Shown here piece after piece: positions 135 through 8,854 of a stretch of 37,360 nucleotides of DNA. The translations under genes were made by a program, and so were the position numbers. The DNA comes from a virus (lineage: Duplodnaviria; Heunggongvirae; Uroviricota; Caudoviricetes). How positions within the stretch are numbered: the first letter of the stretch is position 1; every line of letters begins with the position of its first letter. The stretch is from IMG/VR virus record IMGVR_UViG_2541047905_000010; one strand, given 5' to 3'. Below the pieces are notes generated by a model. It saw only the letters and a program-made list of their open reading frames with translations. It was not told where the DNA came from and did not search any database.

Positions 135-1205
135 TTATTTGATTTCAATTTTGTCCCACTCCCTGCCTCTGTCATCACGATACTGTGATGCCATGGTGTC
201 CGACTTATGCCCGAGAAGATGTTGAGCAAACTTATCGCTTATCTGCTTCTCATAGAGTCTTGCAGACAAACTGCGCAACTCGTGAAAGGTAGGCGGATCC
301 CCTTCGAAGGAAAGACCTGATGCTTTTCGTGCGCGCATAAAATACCTTGATACTGTGCCGGATGAAAGCGGTTCGCGACGAGTAGATGCAATTATGGTTT
401 CTCCGCCAAGAATCTCTTTGCATTTATCAAGTGTTTCCTTCATTGATATTCCGAGAGCATCAACATGCAATGCTGTTGGGATGGCAATTTTTACGCCTGT
501 TTTGCTTTGCTCGACATAAAGATATCCATCTACGATATCAGACCACTTCATTTCGCATAAATCACCAACTCGTTGCCCGGTAACAACAGCCAGTTCCATT
601 GCAAGTCTGAGCCAACATGGTGATGATTCTGCTGCTTGATAAATTTTCAGGTATTCGTCAGCCGTAAGTCTTGATCTCCTTACCTCTGATTTTGCTGCGC
701 GAGTGGCAGCGACAGGGTTTGTTGTTATATGGCCTTCAGCTATTGCCTCTCGGAATGCATCGCTCAGTGTTGATCTGATTAACTTGGCTGACGCCGCCTT
801 GCCCTCGTCTATGTATCCATTGAGCATTGCCGCAATTTCTTTTGTGGTGATGTCTTCAAGTGGAGCATCAGGCAGACCCCTCCTTATTGCTTTAATTTTG
901 CTCATGTAATTTATGAGTGTCTTCTGCTTGATTCCTCTGCTGGCCAGGATTTTTTCGTAGCGATCAAGCCATGAATGTAACGTAACGGAATTATCACTGT
1001 TGATTCTCGCTGTCAGAGGCTTGTGTTTGTGTCCTGAAAATAACTCAATGTTGGCCTGTATAGCTTCAGTGATTGCGATTCGCCTGTCTCGGCCTAATCC
1101 AAACTCTTTACCCGTCCTTGGGTCCCTGTAGCAGTAATATCCATTGTTTCTTATATAAAGGTTAGGGGGTAAATCCCGGCGCTCATGACTTCGCCTTCTT
1201 CCCAT
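135..1205 (-). CDS. int: Tyrosine integrase (lambda Int, 356 aa)
   Basis: 356-aa ORF; C-terminal HxxR...Y catalytic region (HELRSLSARLY, LLGHKSDTMASQYRDDRG) typical of lambda Int; sits next to the att core. Confidence 0.97.
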   Translation of the reverse strand: MGRRRSHERRDLPPNLYIRNNGYYCYRDPRTGKEFGLGRDRRIAITEAIQANIELFSGHKHKPLTARINSDNSVTLHSWLDRYEKILASRGIKQKTLINYMSKIKAIRRGLPDAPLEDITTKEIAAMLNGYIDEGKAASAKLIRSTLSDAFREAIAEGHITTNPVAATRAAKSEVRRSRLTADEYLKIYQAAESSPCWLRLAMELAVVTGQRVGDLCEMKWSDIVDGYLYVEQSKTGVKIAIPTALHVDALGISMKETLDKCKEILGGETIIASTRREPLSSGTVSRYFMRARKASGLSFEGDPPTFHELRSLSARLYEKQISDKFAQHLLGHKSDTMASQYRDDRGREWDKIEIK

Positions 1206-1401
1206 TTCTGATCCTCTTCAAAAGGCTACCTGTTACTGGTCGATTTAAGTCAACCTTTACCGCTGATTCGTGGAACAGATATTCTCTTCCATCCTTAACC
1301 GGAGGAGGGAATATCCTGCATTCGCGCACCCATCGACGAATTGTTTCAAGGCTTCTTGGGCGTCGCTGGCGAGCGTTCCACTCCTGAAGTGTCAAGTACA
1401 T
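1183..1401 (-). CDS. xis: Excisionase (lambda Xis, 72 aa)
   Basis: 72-aa ORF MYLTLQEWNARQRRPRSLETIRRWVRE... overlapping the int start; classic int-xis overlap. Confidence 0.95.
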   Translation of the reverse strand: MYLTLQEWNARQRRPRSLETIRRWVRECRIFPPPVKDGREYLFHESAVKVDLNRPVTGSLLKRIRNGKKAKS

Positions 1402-2325: not shown

Positions 2326-2901
2326 TCACCCATCTTGCTGCGGTGCTACTATTGAAAAGTACTCACACCCTTTAGCCCAAATAGTTTTGATAGTTGTCCA
2401 ACTGACTGGAACCTTGATTTCGATTCTTCCGCTGCCGTCACAAGTTTCGCAATCATCATCACCAAAGCATTCCGGGCAGCTTATAAACGTAGTTTCTGAA
2501 AATTCACCGGATAGCACACCCTTAGCGCCGTTCTCAGCGGTTAGTTTCTTCGGCACTATAACCCAACCATCCGGAGTTACCGGAGAATTGCCATTTATAT
2601 CGAAGTTTGGCTCTGCGTCCTGAACCAGGAGGATGTAACCATTCTTGGCAGTATCAAGTTCTAACGCCTCGGTGACGGTACCGAAATAGCGATTACCTAA
2701 ATCCGCATCACAAGTGCTTACATCAATGGAAACCTCCATGCCTTCGATTAATTCTGGCAAGTTGTAAGTTTGGCTTACAGGTTCTGCTCCCAGTGATGCC
2801 AGTGCAATTCGTGCCAGTTCCATTTGTTCGCCACGAGTAAGCCCGTTTTCAAGCGGATTTTTAATGAACAATTCAATACGTTCTTTGGTAATAGTGGTCA
2901 T
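2326..2901 (-). CDS. Hypothetical protein with C-terminal CxxC...CxxC zinc-ribbon motif
   Basis: 191-aa ORF; AAGGA ribosome-binding site 8 nt upstream of ATG; motif CPECFGDDDCETCDGSG; tightly packed with the upstream gene. Confidence 0.6.
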   Translation of the reverse strand: MTTITKERIELFIKNPLENGLTRGEQMELARIALASLGAEPVSQTYNLPELIEGMEVSIDVSTCDADLGNRYFGTVTEALELDTAKNGYILLVQDAEPNFDINGNSPVTPDGWVIVPKKLTAENGAKGVLSGEFSETTFISCPECFGDDDCETCDGSGRIEIKVPVSWTTIKTIWAKGCEYFSIVAPQQDG

Positions 2902-2911
2902 TTGTTAGTCC

Positions 2912-3667
2912 TTAAACTGCTAGTTGCAATTGCATTTCAAAGCGGTCGCGTTGTTCACAATACGCAAGAGAACCAGGGCTATTGTGTGCCTCAATCCGTT
3001 CTACCATTAATGCTGCGCGTGTCTCTTTACTTGCAGGTGCATAAGCCCCAGACCAGGCTTTATCAATACCGATGTTTCGAGCGACGTTCGTACTATCTGC
3101 GCTGGCTAAGGGTAATTTTGTGAATATCAGCGGATTTAACATGCGCAATCCATGTAGTTTCGTAACCAGCTGACCATGCCCATCAACAATGTGACGAATC
3201 AGGTCTTTCATTCTGGCTACCGCAAGAGTTGGGCGCTTTACGTCATAGTCGCCACAACTACCGATAGCCACTCGCGGAAACTCATTGCACAAATGAATAA
3301 ATCGCTCGTCACTTTCATTCATGTGCCACACTGGAACGCCAGCTAGTTTTCCGTGAGGCCACTCATTCAGAAGCGCATCATTTTCCTCCTCTCCGCCATC
3401 AATAACATCCGGGATAATGGCAAAATCGAATCTTGGGTGATTCTTCCAGCGAGCAACAAACTCGTAGTAATCGCTCCAGTCGATTTTGTTTTTGCCAGCT
3501 GCTTTCCAGGCGGTGAATGCACCGTTGTCCAGCGCGAACGACTGACAGTATTCAGCCGCGAGATTGATCTGGCCTGAATGCGCAAAACTGATAAACGCAT
3601 GTCGCCCTTTCCATGCTCTCATTGCGCACGTATCAGGAGTAATAGGCCCACCGTGGTAGTGAATCAT
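2912..3667 (-). CDS. Hypothetical protein (251 aa from the second Met; the track ORF extends to 3709)
   Basis: AAGGAGAG ribosome-binding site 6 nt upstream of the ATG at 3667, placed 1 nt after the upstream gene's stop codon; no family recognised by eye. Confidence 0.55.
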   Translation of the reverse strand: MIHYHGGPITPDTCAMRAWKGRHAFISFAHSGQINLAAEYCQSFALDNGAFTAWKAAGKNKIDWSDYYEFVARWKNHPRFDFAIIPDVIDGGEEENDALLNEWPHGKLAGVPVWHMNESDERFIHLCNEFPRVAIGSCGDYDVKRPTLAVARMKDLIRHIVDGHGQLVTKLHGLRMLNPLIFTKLPLASADSTNVARNIGIDKAWSGAYAPASKETRAALMVERIEAHNSPGSLAYCEQRDRFEMQLQLAV

Positions 3668-3668
3668 C

Positions 3669-4076
3669 TCACTCTCCTTTGATGCGAATGCCAGTAGCGC
3701 GGATTGCATCGATGACTTCAGAAACTTTGTATGCCATTACCGTTTGGTAATCATCGTGAAAATCTGTTCGATGAAGCATGCTGCTACGTTCCGGGAGCAG
3801 TATTTCCCGCGCTTCCAGTTCTGCAATGCGCTTTTTTGCTGCTTCCAGTTCATCCAGTAATTCCAGCACGGTAGCCGGATTAGCCTTGGCAACAAAATCC
3901 CGGACTGGCTTACAATCAATCTCCGCAATGGGTTGATACGATGTGTAGCCATGCTGTCTTGTATAACTACCGTGACGAATAACGAAAAAATCACCATTTA
4001 TTTTTTTAGCCTGCCACTTATCTTCACCGGCTTTCTCTGCCGCTTCACGCAGTGCCTGAGAGTTAATTTCGCTCAC
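3669..4076 (-). CDS. Ead/Ea22-like protein
   Basis: 135-aa ORF with a coiled-coil segment (LLDELEAAKKRIAELEAREI) characteristic of Ead/Ea22-like proteins in lambdoid early-left operons. Confidence 0.55.
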   Translation of the reverse strand: MSEINSQALREAAEKAGEDKWQAKKINGDFFVIRHGSYTRQHGYTSYQPIAEIDCKPVRDFVAKANPATVLELLDELEAAKKRIAELEAREILLPERSSMLHRTDFHDDYQTVMAYKVSEVIDAIRATGIRIKGE

Positions 4077-4294
4077 GTCGAACCTCTCTGTTTACTGATA
4101 AGCTCCAGATCTTGCTGGCAACTGGCACAAGTCCGACAACCCTGAACGGCCAGTCGTCTTCGTTCATCTATCGGATCGCCACACTCACAACAATGAGTGG
4201 CAGATATAGCCTGGTGGTTCAGGCGGCGCATTTTTATTGCTGTGTTGCGCTGTAATTCTTCAATTTCTGATGCTGAATCAATTATGTCTGCCAT
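4073..4294 (-). CDS. DksA/TraR-family C4 zinc-finger protein (lambda Orf73-like)
   Basis: 73-aa ORF with CCECGDPIDERRRLAVQGCRTCASCQ, the four-cysteine finger of the TraR/DksA family. Confidence 0.75.
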   Translation of the reverse strand: MADIIDSASEIEELQRNTAIKMRRLNHQAISATHCCECGDPIDERRRLAVQGCRTCASCQQDLELISKQRGST

Positions 4295-4392
4295 CTTTCA
4301 TTAATCCCTGAATTGTTGGTTAATACGCTTGAGGGTGAATGCGAATAATAAAAAAGGAGCCTGTAGCTCCCTGATGATTTTGCTTTTCATGT

Positions 4393-4876: not shown

Positions 4877-5037
4877 ACAGCTCCCCGTTTATTATTTATC
4901 TCCTCAGCCAGCCGCTGTGCTTTCAGGGGATTTCTGATAACAGAAAGGCCGGGAAATACCCAGCCTCGCTTTGTAATGGAGTAGACGAAAGTGATCGCGC
5001 CCACCCGGATATTATCGTGAGGATGCGTCATCGCCAT
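4849..5037 (-). CDS. Hypothetical small protein (lambda orf60a-like position)
   Basis: 62-aa ORF overlapping the exo start region; positional assignment. Confidence 0.35.
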
Positions 5038-5708
5038 TGCTCCCCAAATACAAAACCAATTTCAGCCAGTGCCTCGTCCATTTTTTCGATGAACTCCGGC
5101 ACCATCTCGTCAAAACTCGCCATGTACTTTTCATCCCGCTCAACCACGACATAATGCAGGCCTTCACGCTTCATACGCGGGTCATAGTTGGCAAAGTACC
5201 AGGCATCTTTTCGCGTCACCCACATGCTGTACTGCACCTGGGCCATGTAAGCCGACTTTATGGCCTCGAAACCACCGAGCCGGAACTTCATGAAATCCCG
5301 GGAGGTAAACGGGCATTTCAGCTCAAGGCCATTGCCGTCACTGCATAAACCATCGGGAGAGCAGGCGGTACGCATACTTTCGTCGCGATAGATGATCGGG
5401 GATTCAGTAACATTCACGCCGGAAGTGAATTCAAACAGAGTTCTGGCGTCGTTCTCGTACTGTTTTCCCCATGCCAGCGCCTTAGCATTAACTTCCGGAG
5501 CCACACCGGTGCAAACCTCAGCCAGCAGGGTGTGGAAGTAGGACATTTTCATGTCAGGCCACTTTTTTCCGGAGCGGGGTTTTGCTATCACATTGTGAAC
5601 TTCTGAAGCGGTGATGACGCCGAGCCGTAATTTGTGCCACGCATCATCCCCCTGTTCGACAGCTCTCACGTCGATTCCGGTACGCTGCAGGATAATGTCC
5701 GGTGTCAT
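5028..5708 (-). CDS. exo: Lambda exonuclease (Red-alpha, 226 aa)
   Basis: 226-aa ORF matching lambda Exo from memory ([40 protein letters not shown]...). Confidence 0.97.
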
Positions 5709-6490
5709 GCAGCCACCTTCTGCTCAGTGGCTTTCTGTTTCAGGAATCCAAGAGCTTTCACTGCTTCGGCCTGTGTCAGTTCTGACGATGCGCGAATGTC
5801 GCGGCGAAATATCTGGGAACAGAGCGGCAATAAGTCGTCATCCCATGTTTTATCCAGGGCAATCAGCAGAGTGTTAATCTCCTGCATGGTTTCATCGTTA
5901 ACCGGAGTGATGTCGCGTTCCGGCTGACGTTCTGCAGTGTATGCGGTATTTTCGACAATGCGCTCGGCTTCATCCTTGTCATAGATACCCGCAAATCCGA
6001 AGGCCAGACGGGCACACTGAATCATGGCTTTATGCCGTAACATCCGTTTGGGATGCGACTGCCACGGCCCCGTAATTTCTCTGCCTTCGCGGGTTTTGAA
6101 TGGTTCGCGGCGGCATTCATCCATCCACTCGGTAACGCAGATCGGATGATTACGGTCCTTGCGGTAAATCCGGCATGTACAGGATTCATTGTCCTGCTCA
6201 AAGTCCATGCCATCAAACTGCTGGTTTTCATTGATGATGCGGGACCAGCCATCAACGCCCACCACCGGAACGATGCCATTCTGCTTATCAGGAAAGGTGT
6301 AAATTTCTTTCGTCCACGGATTAAGGCCGTACTGGTTGGCAACGATCAGTAATGCGATGAACTGCGCATCGCTGGCATCACCTTTAAATGCCGTCTGGCG
6401 AAGAGTGGTGATCAGTTCCTGTGGGTCGACAGAATCCATGCCGACACGTTCAGCCAGCTTCCCAGCCAGCGTTGCGAGTGCTGTACTCAT
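5705..6490 (-). CDS. bet: Beta single-strand annealing protein (Red-beta, 261 aa)
   Basis: 261-aa [62 protein letters not shown]...; overlaps the exo start. Confidence 0.97.
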
Positions 6491-6495
6491 CCGTT

Positions 6496-6792
6496 TTATA
6501 CCTCTGAATCAATATCAACCTGGTGGTGAGCAATGGTTTCAACCATGTACCGGATGTGTTCTGCCATGCGCTCCTGAAACTCAACATCGTCATCAAACGC
6601 ACGGGTAATGGCTTTTTTGCTGGCCCCGTGGCGTTGCAAATGATCGATGCATAGCGATTCAAACAGGTGCTGGGGCAGGCCTTTTTCCATGTCGTCTGCC
6701 AGTTCTGCCTCTTTCTCTTCACGGGCGATCTGCTGGTAGTGACGCGCCCAGCTCTGAGCCTCAAGACGATCCTGAATGTAATAAGCGTTCAT
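6496..6792 (-). CDS. gam: Gam, RecBCD inhibitor, short form only (98 aa)
   Basis: [21 protein letters not shown]...[10 protein letters not shown]; the reading frame upstream of this Met has an in-frame stop and no start codon. Confidence 0.9.
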
Positions 6793-7158: not shown

Positions 7159-7295
7159 AACTAAGTCGCCTCGTTGAAGCGACTGAGGTATGAAGTGTTG
7201 AGTTGATTTCAGCTGGTCACACCGACGTTCACGCGTCCGCTTCACCCCTCGCACTCCCCGAAGCCTGCTGAAATTCAAACTGCGGATCTAAGCGG

Positions 7296-7347
7296 TCATC
7301 GCAACGGTGAAACAGGTGGTTACCGTATCGTTGTGTCGTTGCGATGA
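7296..7347 (-). promoter_or_regulatory. 11-bp perfect inverted repeat (tcatcgcaacg / cgttgcgatga) with 30-bp spacer, in the leader of the leftward early transcript
   Basis: Read directly from the sequence; no U-tract follows, so it is not an intrinsic terminator. Confidence 0.3.
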
Positions 7348-7363
7348 ATTTATTTAAAACTAT

Positions 7364-7430
7364 AGTTGTTTTATCGTCAACAACAAAAGTTGTTTTGTCG
7401 GTTGTTTTAAATATAACTGGTTGTATTTAG
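7364..7430 (-). promoter_or_regulatory. Candidate OL/pL operator-promoter region
   Basis: gttgtt-N8-aacaac at 7365-7384 has the same half-sites as the palindrome between the repressor and cro-like genes; further GTTGT repeats follow at 7389-7425. Confidence 0.35.
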
Positions 7431-7516
7431 GATGGATTTATTTTGTGACTTGCATCGCATAGCGATAACTGAAGTGAGGTGTGGTGGTTTTTTGGACGGT
7501 ATGAGTTATGAGGGGG

Positions 7517-7546
7517 AGGAAAAGAAAACCCGGCGCGGTTGCCGGG
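7517..7546 (-). terminator. Intrinsic terminator downstream of the lipoprotein gene
   Basis: Minus-strand RNA: CCCGGC-AACCGC-GCCGGG followed by UUUUCUUUUC, 9 nt after the stop codon. Confidence 0.65.
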
Positions 7547-7554
7547 TATGATTA

Positions 7555-7935
7555 TCAGTCAGCCCAACCTGATTTCGAGTTTATTTGGGTTTCTGACATT
7601 GTGTATTTCTTAATCGTGTCATCGTTAAAAAGAATAGTAAGTTCTTTTTTCGTACCGTTCGTTCCATTATGGAATAATCCATAGAATGGAATAAAAGTGG
7701 TGCCATTAACTTTTACTTTTGCAAAGGCGTACTTCCAGATCTCGTTTCCACTGTCAGTATATGAAACAGCATCAGGAGAACCAAAGTAAGATTTAACCTC
7801 ATTCTTGGTTGTTTTACCTTCCTGAAGTTTAGACTGGACACTAATTTCAGTTTCATTTTTGAGTTGCTGGTTGCCTGAAGAAGCACACCCAGCCAATACA
7901 GATGCCATCATGGCAGCGATTAGGATTTTTCTCAT
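7555..7935 (-). CDS. Lipoprotein (signal peptide with LAGC lipobox), BamE/OmlA-like fold suspected; lysogenic-conversion moron
   Basis: MRKILIAAMMASVLAGCASS...; AT-rich codon usage; sits directly downstream of the repressor gene on the same strand and has its own terminator. Confidence 0.8.
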   Translation of the reverse strand: MRKILIAAMMASVLAGCASSGNQQLKNETEISVQSKLQEGKTTKNEVKSYFGSPDAVSYTDSGNEIWKYAFAKVKVNGTTFIPFYGLFHNGTNGTKKELTILFNDDTIKKYTMSETQINSKSGWAD

Positions 7936-8164
7936 TTTATGTTTCCATTCATTATAATCAGAAACATCTTAACATAATGATTCGAAATAAAAACCGCTAC
8001 GAGATAGGGGGACATTTTGCTGACAGTAGCAACAAATCTCAGCTAACAACGAGAATATTTACTGAAATATGCAAACAGATTTGGCGTTCTTATAGAGAAT
8101 TTAGTGCAATATCTAATCCGAGTGGTATAAACCTTAACCTTCGCTCCCTTAAGTCGTAGATAAA

Positions 8165-8854
8165 TTAACCATGCTTCCTGTACGTCTGCGGCATGCTTCC
8201 AATGACCTTACCGAATATGAACACCCGGTTCATCTCGTCTTTCTCGATCGGGTCCCACGGCGAGTAGCTCTTGTTATCAGAGATAACCAGCAGCTTATCC
8301 TTCATCATTTGAAGACGTTTTACATGGGCAGTGTCGTCGTACAGAAACGCATAGATGCCATCACCGTCGAAAGATTTAACAGTGATATCAACGAACAGCA
8401 GGTCACCTGGTTCGATCGTCCCTGACATGCTGTCACCTCGCACGTTAATGATGCGGATATTTTCCGCCTTCCTGCCATCGAACATGTGACGAGCATCGTC
8501 AAACGAGTACTCAACCGAGCGTAGAACTTCTACAAACTCACGGTTGATTACACCTGGCCCGGCACTGACTTCTATATCAAGAACGTCAATTTTGAAGTAT
8601 TTGGAATGGCTGACAGTTGATTGTATTGGTTGCACTGTACTGTCTGACATATTTCCAACGCCAGAAGATAACCATTCTGCGCGCACACCCAAAGCGTTCG
8701 CGATCTCCACGATTTTAGTTGTTTGGTTAGCTTTCCCTGTTTCGATTTTCTGAATAGCAGCCTGGCTAACCCCGACCAAATCCCCAAGCGCCTTTTGTGT
8801 AAGGCCTCGCGCTAATCTGGCTTCTTTAAGTCTTTCTGAGAGTGTTGTTTTCAT
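8165..8854 (-). CDS. Prophage repressor, HTH (XRE) + S24 LexA-like peptidase domain (CI-type, not lambda cI)
   Basis: 229 aa; N-terminal LTQKALGDLVGVSQAAIQKIETGK helix-turn-helix; C-terminal Ser/Lys autocleavage module (GDSMSGT...KRL); divergent from the cro-like gene. Confidence 0.9.
   Translation of the reverse strand: MKTTLSERLKEARLARGLTQKALGDLVGVSQAAIQKIETGKANQTTKIVEIANALGVRAEWLSSGVGNMSDSTVQPIQSTVSHSKYFKIDVLDIEVSAGPGVINREFVEVLRSVEYSFDDARHMFDGRKAENIRIINVRGDSMSGTIEPGDLLFVDITVKSFDGDGIYAFLYDDTAHVKRLQMMKDKLLVISDNKSYSPWDPIEKDEMNRVFIFGKVIGSMPQTYRKHG

Follow-up and report, generated by a model that had tools for sequence, protein, structure and literature searches.

A DpdA-family gene and a mosaic Ea22/EaA-type gene in the exo-xis region of a lambda-like prophage

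The window analysed here is the whole 37,360-nucleotide (nt) stretch of IMG/VR record IMGVR_UViG_2541047905_000010 (Caudoviricetes), which holds a lambda-like prophage. Between exo and xis it carries a gene for a protein of 251 amino acids (aa) that, judged by sequence comparison, is a member of the already catalogued DpdA family, namely a DpdA-only ('singleton') phage DpdA homologue. DpdA proteins are phage DNA 7-deazaguanine transglycosylases, which exchange guanine in phage DNA for 7-deazaguanine bases and thereby help it to evade restriction. The best explanation as a whole, which we consider rather probable, is that this gene encodes a DpdA-only enzyme working by the mechanism proposed below, and that the gene for a 191-aa protein next to it does not encode its partner. 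The genes and the junction in question are:

3669-4076, minus strand: Ead/Ea22-like gene, 135 aa, GTG start (Pfam PF13935; PHROG 1667, E 1.7e-56)
3665-3680, minus strand: stop-start junction with AAAGGAGAG as ribosome-binding site, TGA of the Ead gene at 3671-3669, a 1-nt gap and the dpdA ATG at 3667-3665
2912-3667, minus strand: dpdA homologue, 251 aa
2326-2901, minus strand: mosaic Ea22/EaA-type gene, 191 aa

The mechanical open reading frame (ORF) for the 251-aa gene spans 2912-3709 (265 aa). The true start is the ATG at 3667, because every homologue begins with MIHYHGGP; M1, I2, H3 and H5 are invariant at the N-terminus (alignment A1). A preliminary description, made from the letters alone, had reported a close-packed three-gene block between xis and exo in which the 251-aa gene has a ribosome-binding site and begins only 1 nt beyond the preceding stop. 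All described elements are present on the minus strand, including GGAG at 3677-3674, 6 nt 5' of the dpdA ATG. This layout of Ead stop and dpdA start is consistent with translational coupling. The dpdA stop is followed by a 10-nt spacer and the start of the 191-aa gene. The region itself is the variable exo-xis accessory region of lambdoid phages, as had been proposed.

The 251-aa protein and the DpdA family

The 251-aa protein matches PHROG 887 ('queuine tRNA-ribosyltransferase') at E 2.9e-103. The same PHROG also takes in DpdA of Pseudomonas phage Iggy (5.1e-86) and the corresponding protein of Salmonella phage 7-11 (7.1e-74). A family profile was built from 62 sequences drawn from 50%-cluster representatives and compared to CAjan DpdA using hhalign, giving a probability of 99.7% and E 8.5e-27 over ~185 residues. 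Thereby the motifs pair as LDNGAF/LDSGAF, PVWH/PCFH, IGS/IGG, KLHGL/KLHAF and SADST/SCDSS (family/CAjan). Moreover, tblastn with Iggy DpdA as query reaches the 251-aa gene at E 6.3e-11.

Homologues of the 251-aa protein were found by tblastn in 118 phage records, with identities of 92% in BTP1 and SPN3UB, 68% in SfI, 61% in Vibrio phages and 36% in 7-11; at the 50%-cluster level it has 1,507 relatives. BTP1, SPN3UB, SfI and HK106 are named among the 'DpdA only' phages, i.e. those with DpdA but without precursor pathway, in Supplementary Data 1 of Hutinet et al. 2019. RefSeq calls the BTP1 and SfI proteins queuine tRNA-ribosyltransferase, which is a superfamily label and not a function. The preliminary description had treated the 251-aa protein as an unplaced unknown with a faint likeness to base-modifying enzymes. 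The likeness is borne out by PHROG 887 and the CAjan alignment, a confident homology to a characterised family; the unplaced status does not hold, as its 92%-identical BTP1 orthologue has been catalogued together with those of SfI, SPN3UB and HK106.

Compared to the members of DpdA-only group 3 (BTP1 SIU02687/YP_009639228, SPN3UB, SfI YP_009147480, HK106 and 7-11), the protein has the same size of ~250 aa, and the identities given above for BTP1, SPN3UB, SfI and 7-11 extend over the full length. The gene occupies the same exo-xis/early-region position in temperate lambdoid and P22-like phages, likewise without preQ0 genes. Nothing substantive differs: here we see an Escherichia coli allele, a prophage with lambda int and a different downstream gene. 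Apart from the 2019 catalogue, a literature search turned up no functional studies of DpdA from temperate or lambdoid phages.

The distance to the better studied relatives is larger. DpdA1 of the Queuovirinae (CAjan, 9g, Iggy), for which insertion of preQ0 was shown experimentally, falls into the same PHROG 887 and has the LD(N/S)GAF, H, IG(S/G), K-x-H and (A/C)DS(T/S) motifs in common with the 251-aa protein, but identity is only ~22-26% and the 251-aa protein is 55-60 residues shorter. To bacterial DpdA (Salmonella Montevideo, PDB 7UI4) and tRNA-guanine transglycosylases (TGTs) there is no detectable sequence similarity by HMMER or hhalign. Bacterial DpdA has 413 aa as against 251 aa, and the 251-aa protein lacks its large Ins8/zinc subdomain; a zinc-site cysteine cluster (CxCxxC...H) is not found after D191 in the 251-aa sequence. 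The window also lacks a DpdB partner and dpd restriction genes.

The gene is maintained by selection. Between the 251-aa gene and its Salmonella BTP1 orthologue, the proportion of differing synonymous sites (pS) is 0.70, which is near saturation, whereas the proportion for non-synonymous sites (pN) is 0.044, corresponding to a ratio of non-synonymous to synonymous change (dN/dS) of ~0.02. The 251-aa protein is functional and under strong purifying selection. Given these values and the relatives of the 251-aa protein on the one hand, and the thousands of relatives of the 191-aa protein on the other, both ORFs are real genes and not chance ORFs. The dpdA copies of Yersinia similis (locus L015) and Paraferrimonas sedimenticola (locus L021), both from 6001, show an in-frame stop after 73 and 205 codons, respectively. 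Both were aligned over their full length by tblastn, and may either be pseudogenes with premature stops or reflect a slicing-frame issue.

The catalytic motifs are conserved throughout the family. D47, H172, D191 and S192 are invariant in the 62 sequences, and D87, H115, G136, G173 and L174 are conserved in at least 90% of them. In CAjan and Iggy, D47 falls on LDSGAF and D191-S192 on CDSS. In DpdA of Salmonella Montevideo the active site is formed by D95 with F99, D130, H181, G206, L236 and the nucleophile D256 (PMC10164549). Motif order and spacing suggest that D47/F51, D87, H115, G136, L174 and D191 parallel these residues in the same order. A conserved histidine separating DpdA1 from DpdA2 is His196 of 9g DpdA. 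In the alignment with CAjan, H172 falls on K-L-H and may correspond to 9g His196.

An AlphaFold2 (AF2) model of the 251-aa protein is a triosephosphate isomerase (TIM) barrel of moderate confidence (predicted local distance difference test, pLDDT, 75.7; predicted template modelling score, pTM, 0.78). Foldseek with this model retrieved generic TIM barrels only. The predicted fold is thus supportive, not decisive.

Precursor supply, proposed mechanism and other readings

Homologues of FolE, QueD, QueE, QueC and YhhQ, searched with CAjan and Iggy queries, are absent from the 37-kb window, and none of them occurs in the annotation of the related prophage of E. coli IAI1. Hutinet et al. 2019 distinguish groups 1 and 2, which co-encode genes for the synthesis of preQ0 or G+, from DpdA-only group 3, which lacks them. 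The absence of preQ0 synthesis genes from the window hence places the 251-aa protein in group 3. In contrast, genes for FolE, QueD, QueE and QueC and for a YhhQ-like transporter accompany dpdA in CAjan, 9g and Iggy, whose DNA has 16-32% of its guanine (G) modified.

Lacking a preQ0 pathway of its own, the prophage must draw the base from its host. In E. coli both preQ0 and preQ1 are produced on the way to queuosine, and Hutinet et al. 2019 note a complete queuosine pathway in the hosts of DpdA-only enterobacterial phages. Deletion of dpdA from CAjan leads to loss of dPreQ0 (PMC6884629). Moreover, when 9g DpdA is expressed in E. coli by itself, it incorporates preQ0 made by the host into plasmid DNA at a level of 790 per 10^6 nt (PMC6884629).

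Based on these data we propose the following mechanism. Placed in the leftward early (pL) operon, dpdA of this lambda-like prophage would be expressed after induction or infection. The enzyme, predicted to be a small TIM-barrel protein of the TGT superfamily, would excise guanine from double-stranded DNA via a covalent Asp-deoxyribose intermediate, with D191 as probable nucleophile and D47 as probable general acid/base. A 7-deazaguanine base, most likely preQ0 supplied by the FolE, QueD, QueE and QueC enzymes of the host, would then be inserted. Packaged DNA would thus carry low-level, motif-restricted dPreQ0 or a derivative, which may interfere with restriction enzymes.

A further connection to 7-deazaguanine bases comes from Phleasolo, a T1-like lytic coliphage (locus L038, 3522-4825). 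Here a gene for a YhhQ/VUT-like putative preQ0 transporter lies directly 5' of a gene for a 276-aa DpdA homologue, whereby the stop of the former overlaps the start of the latter. The transporter-like protein is 24% identical to the putative preQ0 transporter of CAjan (E 4e-6), and no preQ0 synthesis genes were found in the 7.5 kb of Phleasolo examined. This neighbour again ties the DpdA-only clade to 7-deazaguanine bases.

A dpdA allele of 99.6% identity is also found on the 97-kb plasmid pDEC12A-1 of E. coli O111:H2 (locus L044, 2501-4858), two genes away from a DNA methyltransferase. Its surroundings are phage-like (S24 peptidase, DUF968), suggesting a phage-plasmid with two DNA-modification genes.

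Several observations weigh against a DNA-modifying DpdA. Used as single sequence or in the form of three profiles, the 251-aa protein has no match in Pfam (including TGT), NCBIfam, PADLOC or among PDB chains; no Pfam model, TGT (PF01702) included, matches it or any of the 62 family members. Only PHROGs and the profile-profile comparison with CAjan DpdA placed it. These failed searches explain why the preliminary description could not assign the protein and why the NCBI Prokaryotic Genome Annotation Pipeline labels the E. coli copies 'hypothetical protein'. Likewise hhalign of the 251-aa family against E. coli TGT gave no meaningful alignment, and the mapping of residues onto TGT and bacterial DpdA is therefore inferential. 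The protein is not notably basic, having an isoelectric point (pI) of 6.45. Moreover P-D87-x-I of the clade takes the place of A-S-V-L-D in CAjan and Iggy, so the substrate-recognition aspartate of the clade may sit differently. Only two DpdA-only phages have been tested, with 50 dADG per 10^6 nt (0.02% of G) in 7-11 and none in Orion, and Hutinet et al. 2019 left open a functional divergence of the DpdA-only enzymes. Finally, host supply alone leads to a low expected modification, which may be too low for general anti-restriction.

In the alignment of residues 85-91 (A3; window ~3395-3415) the DpdA-only proteins read I-P-D-V-I-x-G, with D87 in 60 of 62 sequences, as compared to M-A-S-V-L-D-G in CAjan and Iggy. 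The probable base-recognition aspartate has moved by three residues, and this may reflect a difference in specificity.

Two other readings of the DpdA-only enzymes have to be weighed. The clade may have diverged from DNA hypermodification, keeping the transglycosylase chemistry for another substrate or purpose. Options would be a protein-linked 7-deazaguanine as with Cap10, interference with host immunity based on 7-deazaguanine (type IV cyclic oligonucleotide-based antiphage signalling systems, CBASS; QatABCD; Dpd), or insertion of a different base. We regard this as unlikely. To Cap10 of type IV CBASS (PDB 9NTN) the 251-aa protein is 10% identical. The partners of Cap10, a cGAS/DncV-like nucleotidyltransferase (CD-NTase) with an M(G/S)GG motif at its N-terminus and the QueC-like Cap9, are both missing here, the neighbours being Ead/Ea22, DksA-like and Ea22-type genes; furthermore the 251-aa gene is part of a phage early operon and not of a defence island. 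Just as improbable in our view is a modification of phage DNA at trace level, whose benefit would lie not in general anti-restriction but in self-marking against Dpd-type systems that restrict DNA without 7-deazaguanine, or in a regulatory or epigenetic mark. The low levels reached by 9g DpdA alone with host preQ0 (only 0.03-0.3% of G) and by 7-11 speak for it, as do the bacterial Dpd systems, which modify <0.1% of G and still tell self from non-self. Many carriers are moreover Salmonella and other enterobacterial temperate phages. Yet this scenario is entirely inferential.

A broader version is equally doubtful to us. According to it, the DpdA-only enzymes found in temperate phages of enterobacteria would be no ordinary DNA hypermodification enzymes, and the 7-deazaguanine precursors of the host would serve them for something else, either for sparse, site-specific marking against Dpd-type or other 7-deazaguanine-aware immunity or for action on a non-DNA target as with Cap10; separately, the LTAENGAK/zinc-knuckle module of the 191-aa protein (see below) would represent a small phage domain that is new, widespread and directed against the host. 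We prefer the insertion of a host-derived 7-deazaguanine base into phage DNA.

The 191-aa gene and its relation to dpdA

The preliminary description had framed the 251-aa and the 191-aa genes as a pair and named two refuting outcomes, confident homology to a characterised family and lack of co-occurrence; both have now come about. The distribution of the two genes contradicts a pair, and judged from genome comparison dpdA and the 191-aa gene are not a functional unit. Among 5,426 complete E. coli genomes, the dpdA allele is found in 204 and the C-terminal module of the 191-aa protein (module B, see below) in 191, but both are adjacent in only 39. None of 32 loci from other genomes (one-genome-per-species contigs of Pantoea, Erwinia, Yersinia, Proteus, Aeromonas and others) has the arrangement of the window, i.e. 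a 191-aa homologue downstream of dpdA. A weak partial match to the 191-aa protein occurs in a single one of them (L007), where it lies upstream of dpdA. Clustering of all flanking ORFs in 35 loci did not reveal any conserved neighbour of dpdA.

One could nevertheless picture the two proteins as a two-component system in which the zinc-knuckle protein is a cofactor or targeting subunit, like DpdB for bacterial DpdA. Adjacency in the same operon with a 10-nt spacer, the need of bacterial DpdA for DpdB and the 39 genomes with an adjacent pair, as compared to ~7 co-occurrences expected by chance, would fit. However, the adjacent pair copies listed are ~99.9% identical, which suggests shared descent rather than selection for linkage. 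In addition ~80% of the E. coli dpdA copies have no adjacent module B, and the converse is also true. The neighbours in BTP1, SfI and Vibrio phages are different, the body of the 191-aa protein serves as C-terminal domain of Ea22 proteins in prophages without dpdA, and 9g DpdA is active alone in E. coli. Together with the absence of the arrangement from the 32 loci, these distribution data largely refute a two-component system, which we consider highly improbable. A DpdB-like cofactor role of the 191-aa protein was rejected on the same grounds.

What does recur in E. coli and Salmonella is a cassette of an Ead/Ea22 gene, then dpdA, then a gene with an MTTITKE leader and variable body. The cassette occupies either the exo-xis or the nin region (the latter in IAI39), or is carried by a phage-plasmid. 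The gene downstream of dpdA varies between DUF550-named, DUF551-named and others. In BTP1 (locus L001, 3267-4232) the gene just downstream of dpdA is annotated as DUF550-domain, and in E. coli 2014C-3599 (locus L043, 1693-2397) as dATP/dGTP pyrophosphohydrolase-domain. The vicinity of a dGTP-directed enzyme to a guanine transglycosylase could have a meaning or be a chance product of mosaicism; only 4 of 35 loci have the BTP1-type protein.

Sequence comparison indicates that the 191-aa gene is a recombinational mosaic of the Ea22/EaA accessory family, composed of a leader and two modules:

2788-2901, minus strand: leader module, residues 1-38 (MTTITKE...ELARIALASL), common to many exo-xis proteins
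2569-2787, minus strand: module A, ~residues 39-111, found elsewhere without module B
2347-2568, minus strand: module B, ~residues 112-185, with P..LTAENGAK....GEF and W..IK motifs and a CxxC...CxxCxGxG knuckle pair at 2431-2481

The N-terminal 45 residues match five different PHROGs, and the MTTITKE leader also heads EaA of BTP1 and other variants. A nucleotide match to Salmonella phages S107, S135 and S137 spans dpdA and the leader of the 191-aa gene only. Module A recurs in HK620 hkaE, HK633 and HK629 at 96-97% identity, and in P22-like EaA/Eaa2 and Stx phages at 74-87%. Its AF2 pLDDT is below 50, giving no confident model. Module B is also found free-standing as 76-80 aa proteins in other phages and metagenomes. 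Its invariant residues are P117, L120, T121, N124, G125, A126, K127, G132, E133, W168 and K172. The knuckle pair, CPECFGDDDCETCDGSG at residues 141-157 (window 2431-2481), is not invariant and is missing in some members.

The whole 191-aa protein matches PHROG 60 at E 1.4e-41, this and its other PHROG matches all being of unknown function, and has no match in Pfam, NCBIfam or PDB. AF2 reached a pLDDT of 57 and is confident only for ~residues 131-183, a beta-hairpin and helix within module B. Foldseek gave no structural match, so that the structural search proposed for both proteins yielded generic barrels for one and nothing for the other. NCBI names the protein 'molecular chaperone DnaJ'. We reject this name, as there is no J domain or DnaJ Pfam match, the two knuckles include one CxxCxGxG instead of four repeats, and the cysteines are not conserved; the comparison to the DnaJ cysteine-rich domain (1exk) gave E 7.3. 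One of 44 sequences, the 155-aa metagenomic module B protein P0258, matches the Pfam Lar restriction-alleviation family (PF14354, E 3.7e-7), a single case from which we draw no conclusion.

In other E. coli prophages residues 39-191 are fused to Ead/Ea22, DUF550-named or DUF551-named N-terminal parts, and many such fusions exist. The PF13935 protein P0079 combines an Ead/Ea22 N-terminal part with a C-terminal part ~99% identical to residues 39-191, its coiled coil (...LEAAKKRIAELEA) running straight into EPVSQTYNL.... The same ...LEAAKKRIAELEA is shared by the 135-aa Ead gene of the window, which scores 64.1 bits against PF13935 (cut-off 27; E 2.6e-17) and encodes an Ea22-family N-terminal domain, a coiled coil and a short unrelated tail. 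Phage records name the 191-aa homologues EaA, Eaa2 or Ea22.

In the published description of Ea22 (PMC10834534), a short N-terminal part is followed by a coiled coil and this by a C-terminal domain that varies, and the fused P0079-type layout matches this architecture. Compared to the lambda Ea22/P22 EaA family, the 135-aa gene contributes PF13935 and a coiled coil and the 191-aa protein an EaA-type MTTITKE leader, but N-terminal part and C-terminal-type body are here separate genes with dpdA in between. The 191-aa protein has no sequence match to the solved C-terminal domain of lambda Ea22. The earlier view that two genes had replaced lambda ea22 thus needs qualification, since an Ea22-family N-terminal gene is still present and the 191-aa body is itself an Ea22-type C-terminal domain. 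A pI as acidic as 4.2 speaks against simple binding of DNA by the 191-aa protein. If lambda Ea22 is taken as a guide, protein contacts affecting phage development are more likely for the 191-aa protein than DNA modification.

Locus and significance

In the window, a string of small early-left genes follows int and xis, succeeded by exo-bet-gam. The genes studied lie mid-interval between exo and xis. Next to them we find:

135-1205, minus strand: lambda-type int
1183-1401, minus strand: xis
4073-4294, minus strand: DksA/TraR-type zinc-finger gene, 73 aa (Pfam PF01258, E 5.1e-9; PHROG 54, E 1.7e-25)
5028-5708, minus strand: exo
5705-6490, minus strand: bet
6496-6792, minus strand: gam

The DksA/TraR-type gene is the upstream member of the same close-packed run as the Ead gene, dpdA and the 191-aa gene. 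On the minus strand no promoter-like sites were found from 4300 to 2300, and the block is therefore read as part of the leftward early transcript. Terminator-like hairpins on the transcribed strand number three in 1432-1678, between a 94-aa ORF and xis, and one at 4354-4372 just upstream of the DksA-like gene. Altogether 12 such sites were predicted, as compared to 3.5 from shuffled sequence. Expression of the block would then depend on antitermination.

Copies of the block with 99.7-99.9% identity occur in 29 of the 5,426 complete E. coli genomes, e.g. in IAI1 at the lambda attachment region. In IAI1 (locus L046, 1372-3802) the otherwise near-identical block shows decay. Its 191-aa gene is broken into two pieces, an incomplete leader and a 137-aa 'DnaJ' remnant, and the interval between this gene and xis contains an IS3-family element. 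Elsewhere in the window, a 126-aa ORF with a lipoprotein-type signal (MRKILIAAMMASVLAGC...) lies at 7555-7935 on the minus strand, between gam and a CI-like repressor gene (8165-8854). It falls within a low-GC stretch at ~7250-8250 (38-40% GC island) and looks like an inserted accessory gene.

Taken together the finding is largely ordinary, in that the family has already been catalogued and the two genes are functionally unrelated. The 191-aa gene mainly shows how exo-xis genes are assembled from shuffled modules. The remaining interest is the role of the DpdA-only enzymes, for which an E. coli lambda-type prophage represents the most tractable system. The 251-aa gene is present in ~4% of complete E. 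coli genomes (204/5,426) as well as in many prophages of Salmonella, Shigella, Klebsiella, Yersinia, Serratia and Vibrio. Provided that the enzyme is active, ordinary temperate phages of the lambda-like and Stx types would exit with 7-deazaguanine-marked DNA made from queuosine precursors of the host. This would bear on the ability of such phages, toxin-converting ones included, to get past restriction, on the behaviour of their DNA towards restriction enzymes and Cas9 and in nanopore sequencing, and on their sensitivity to the newly described glycosylases attacking deazaguanine DNA.

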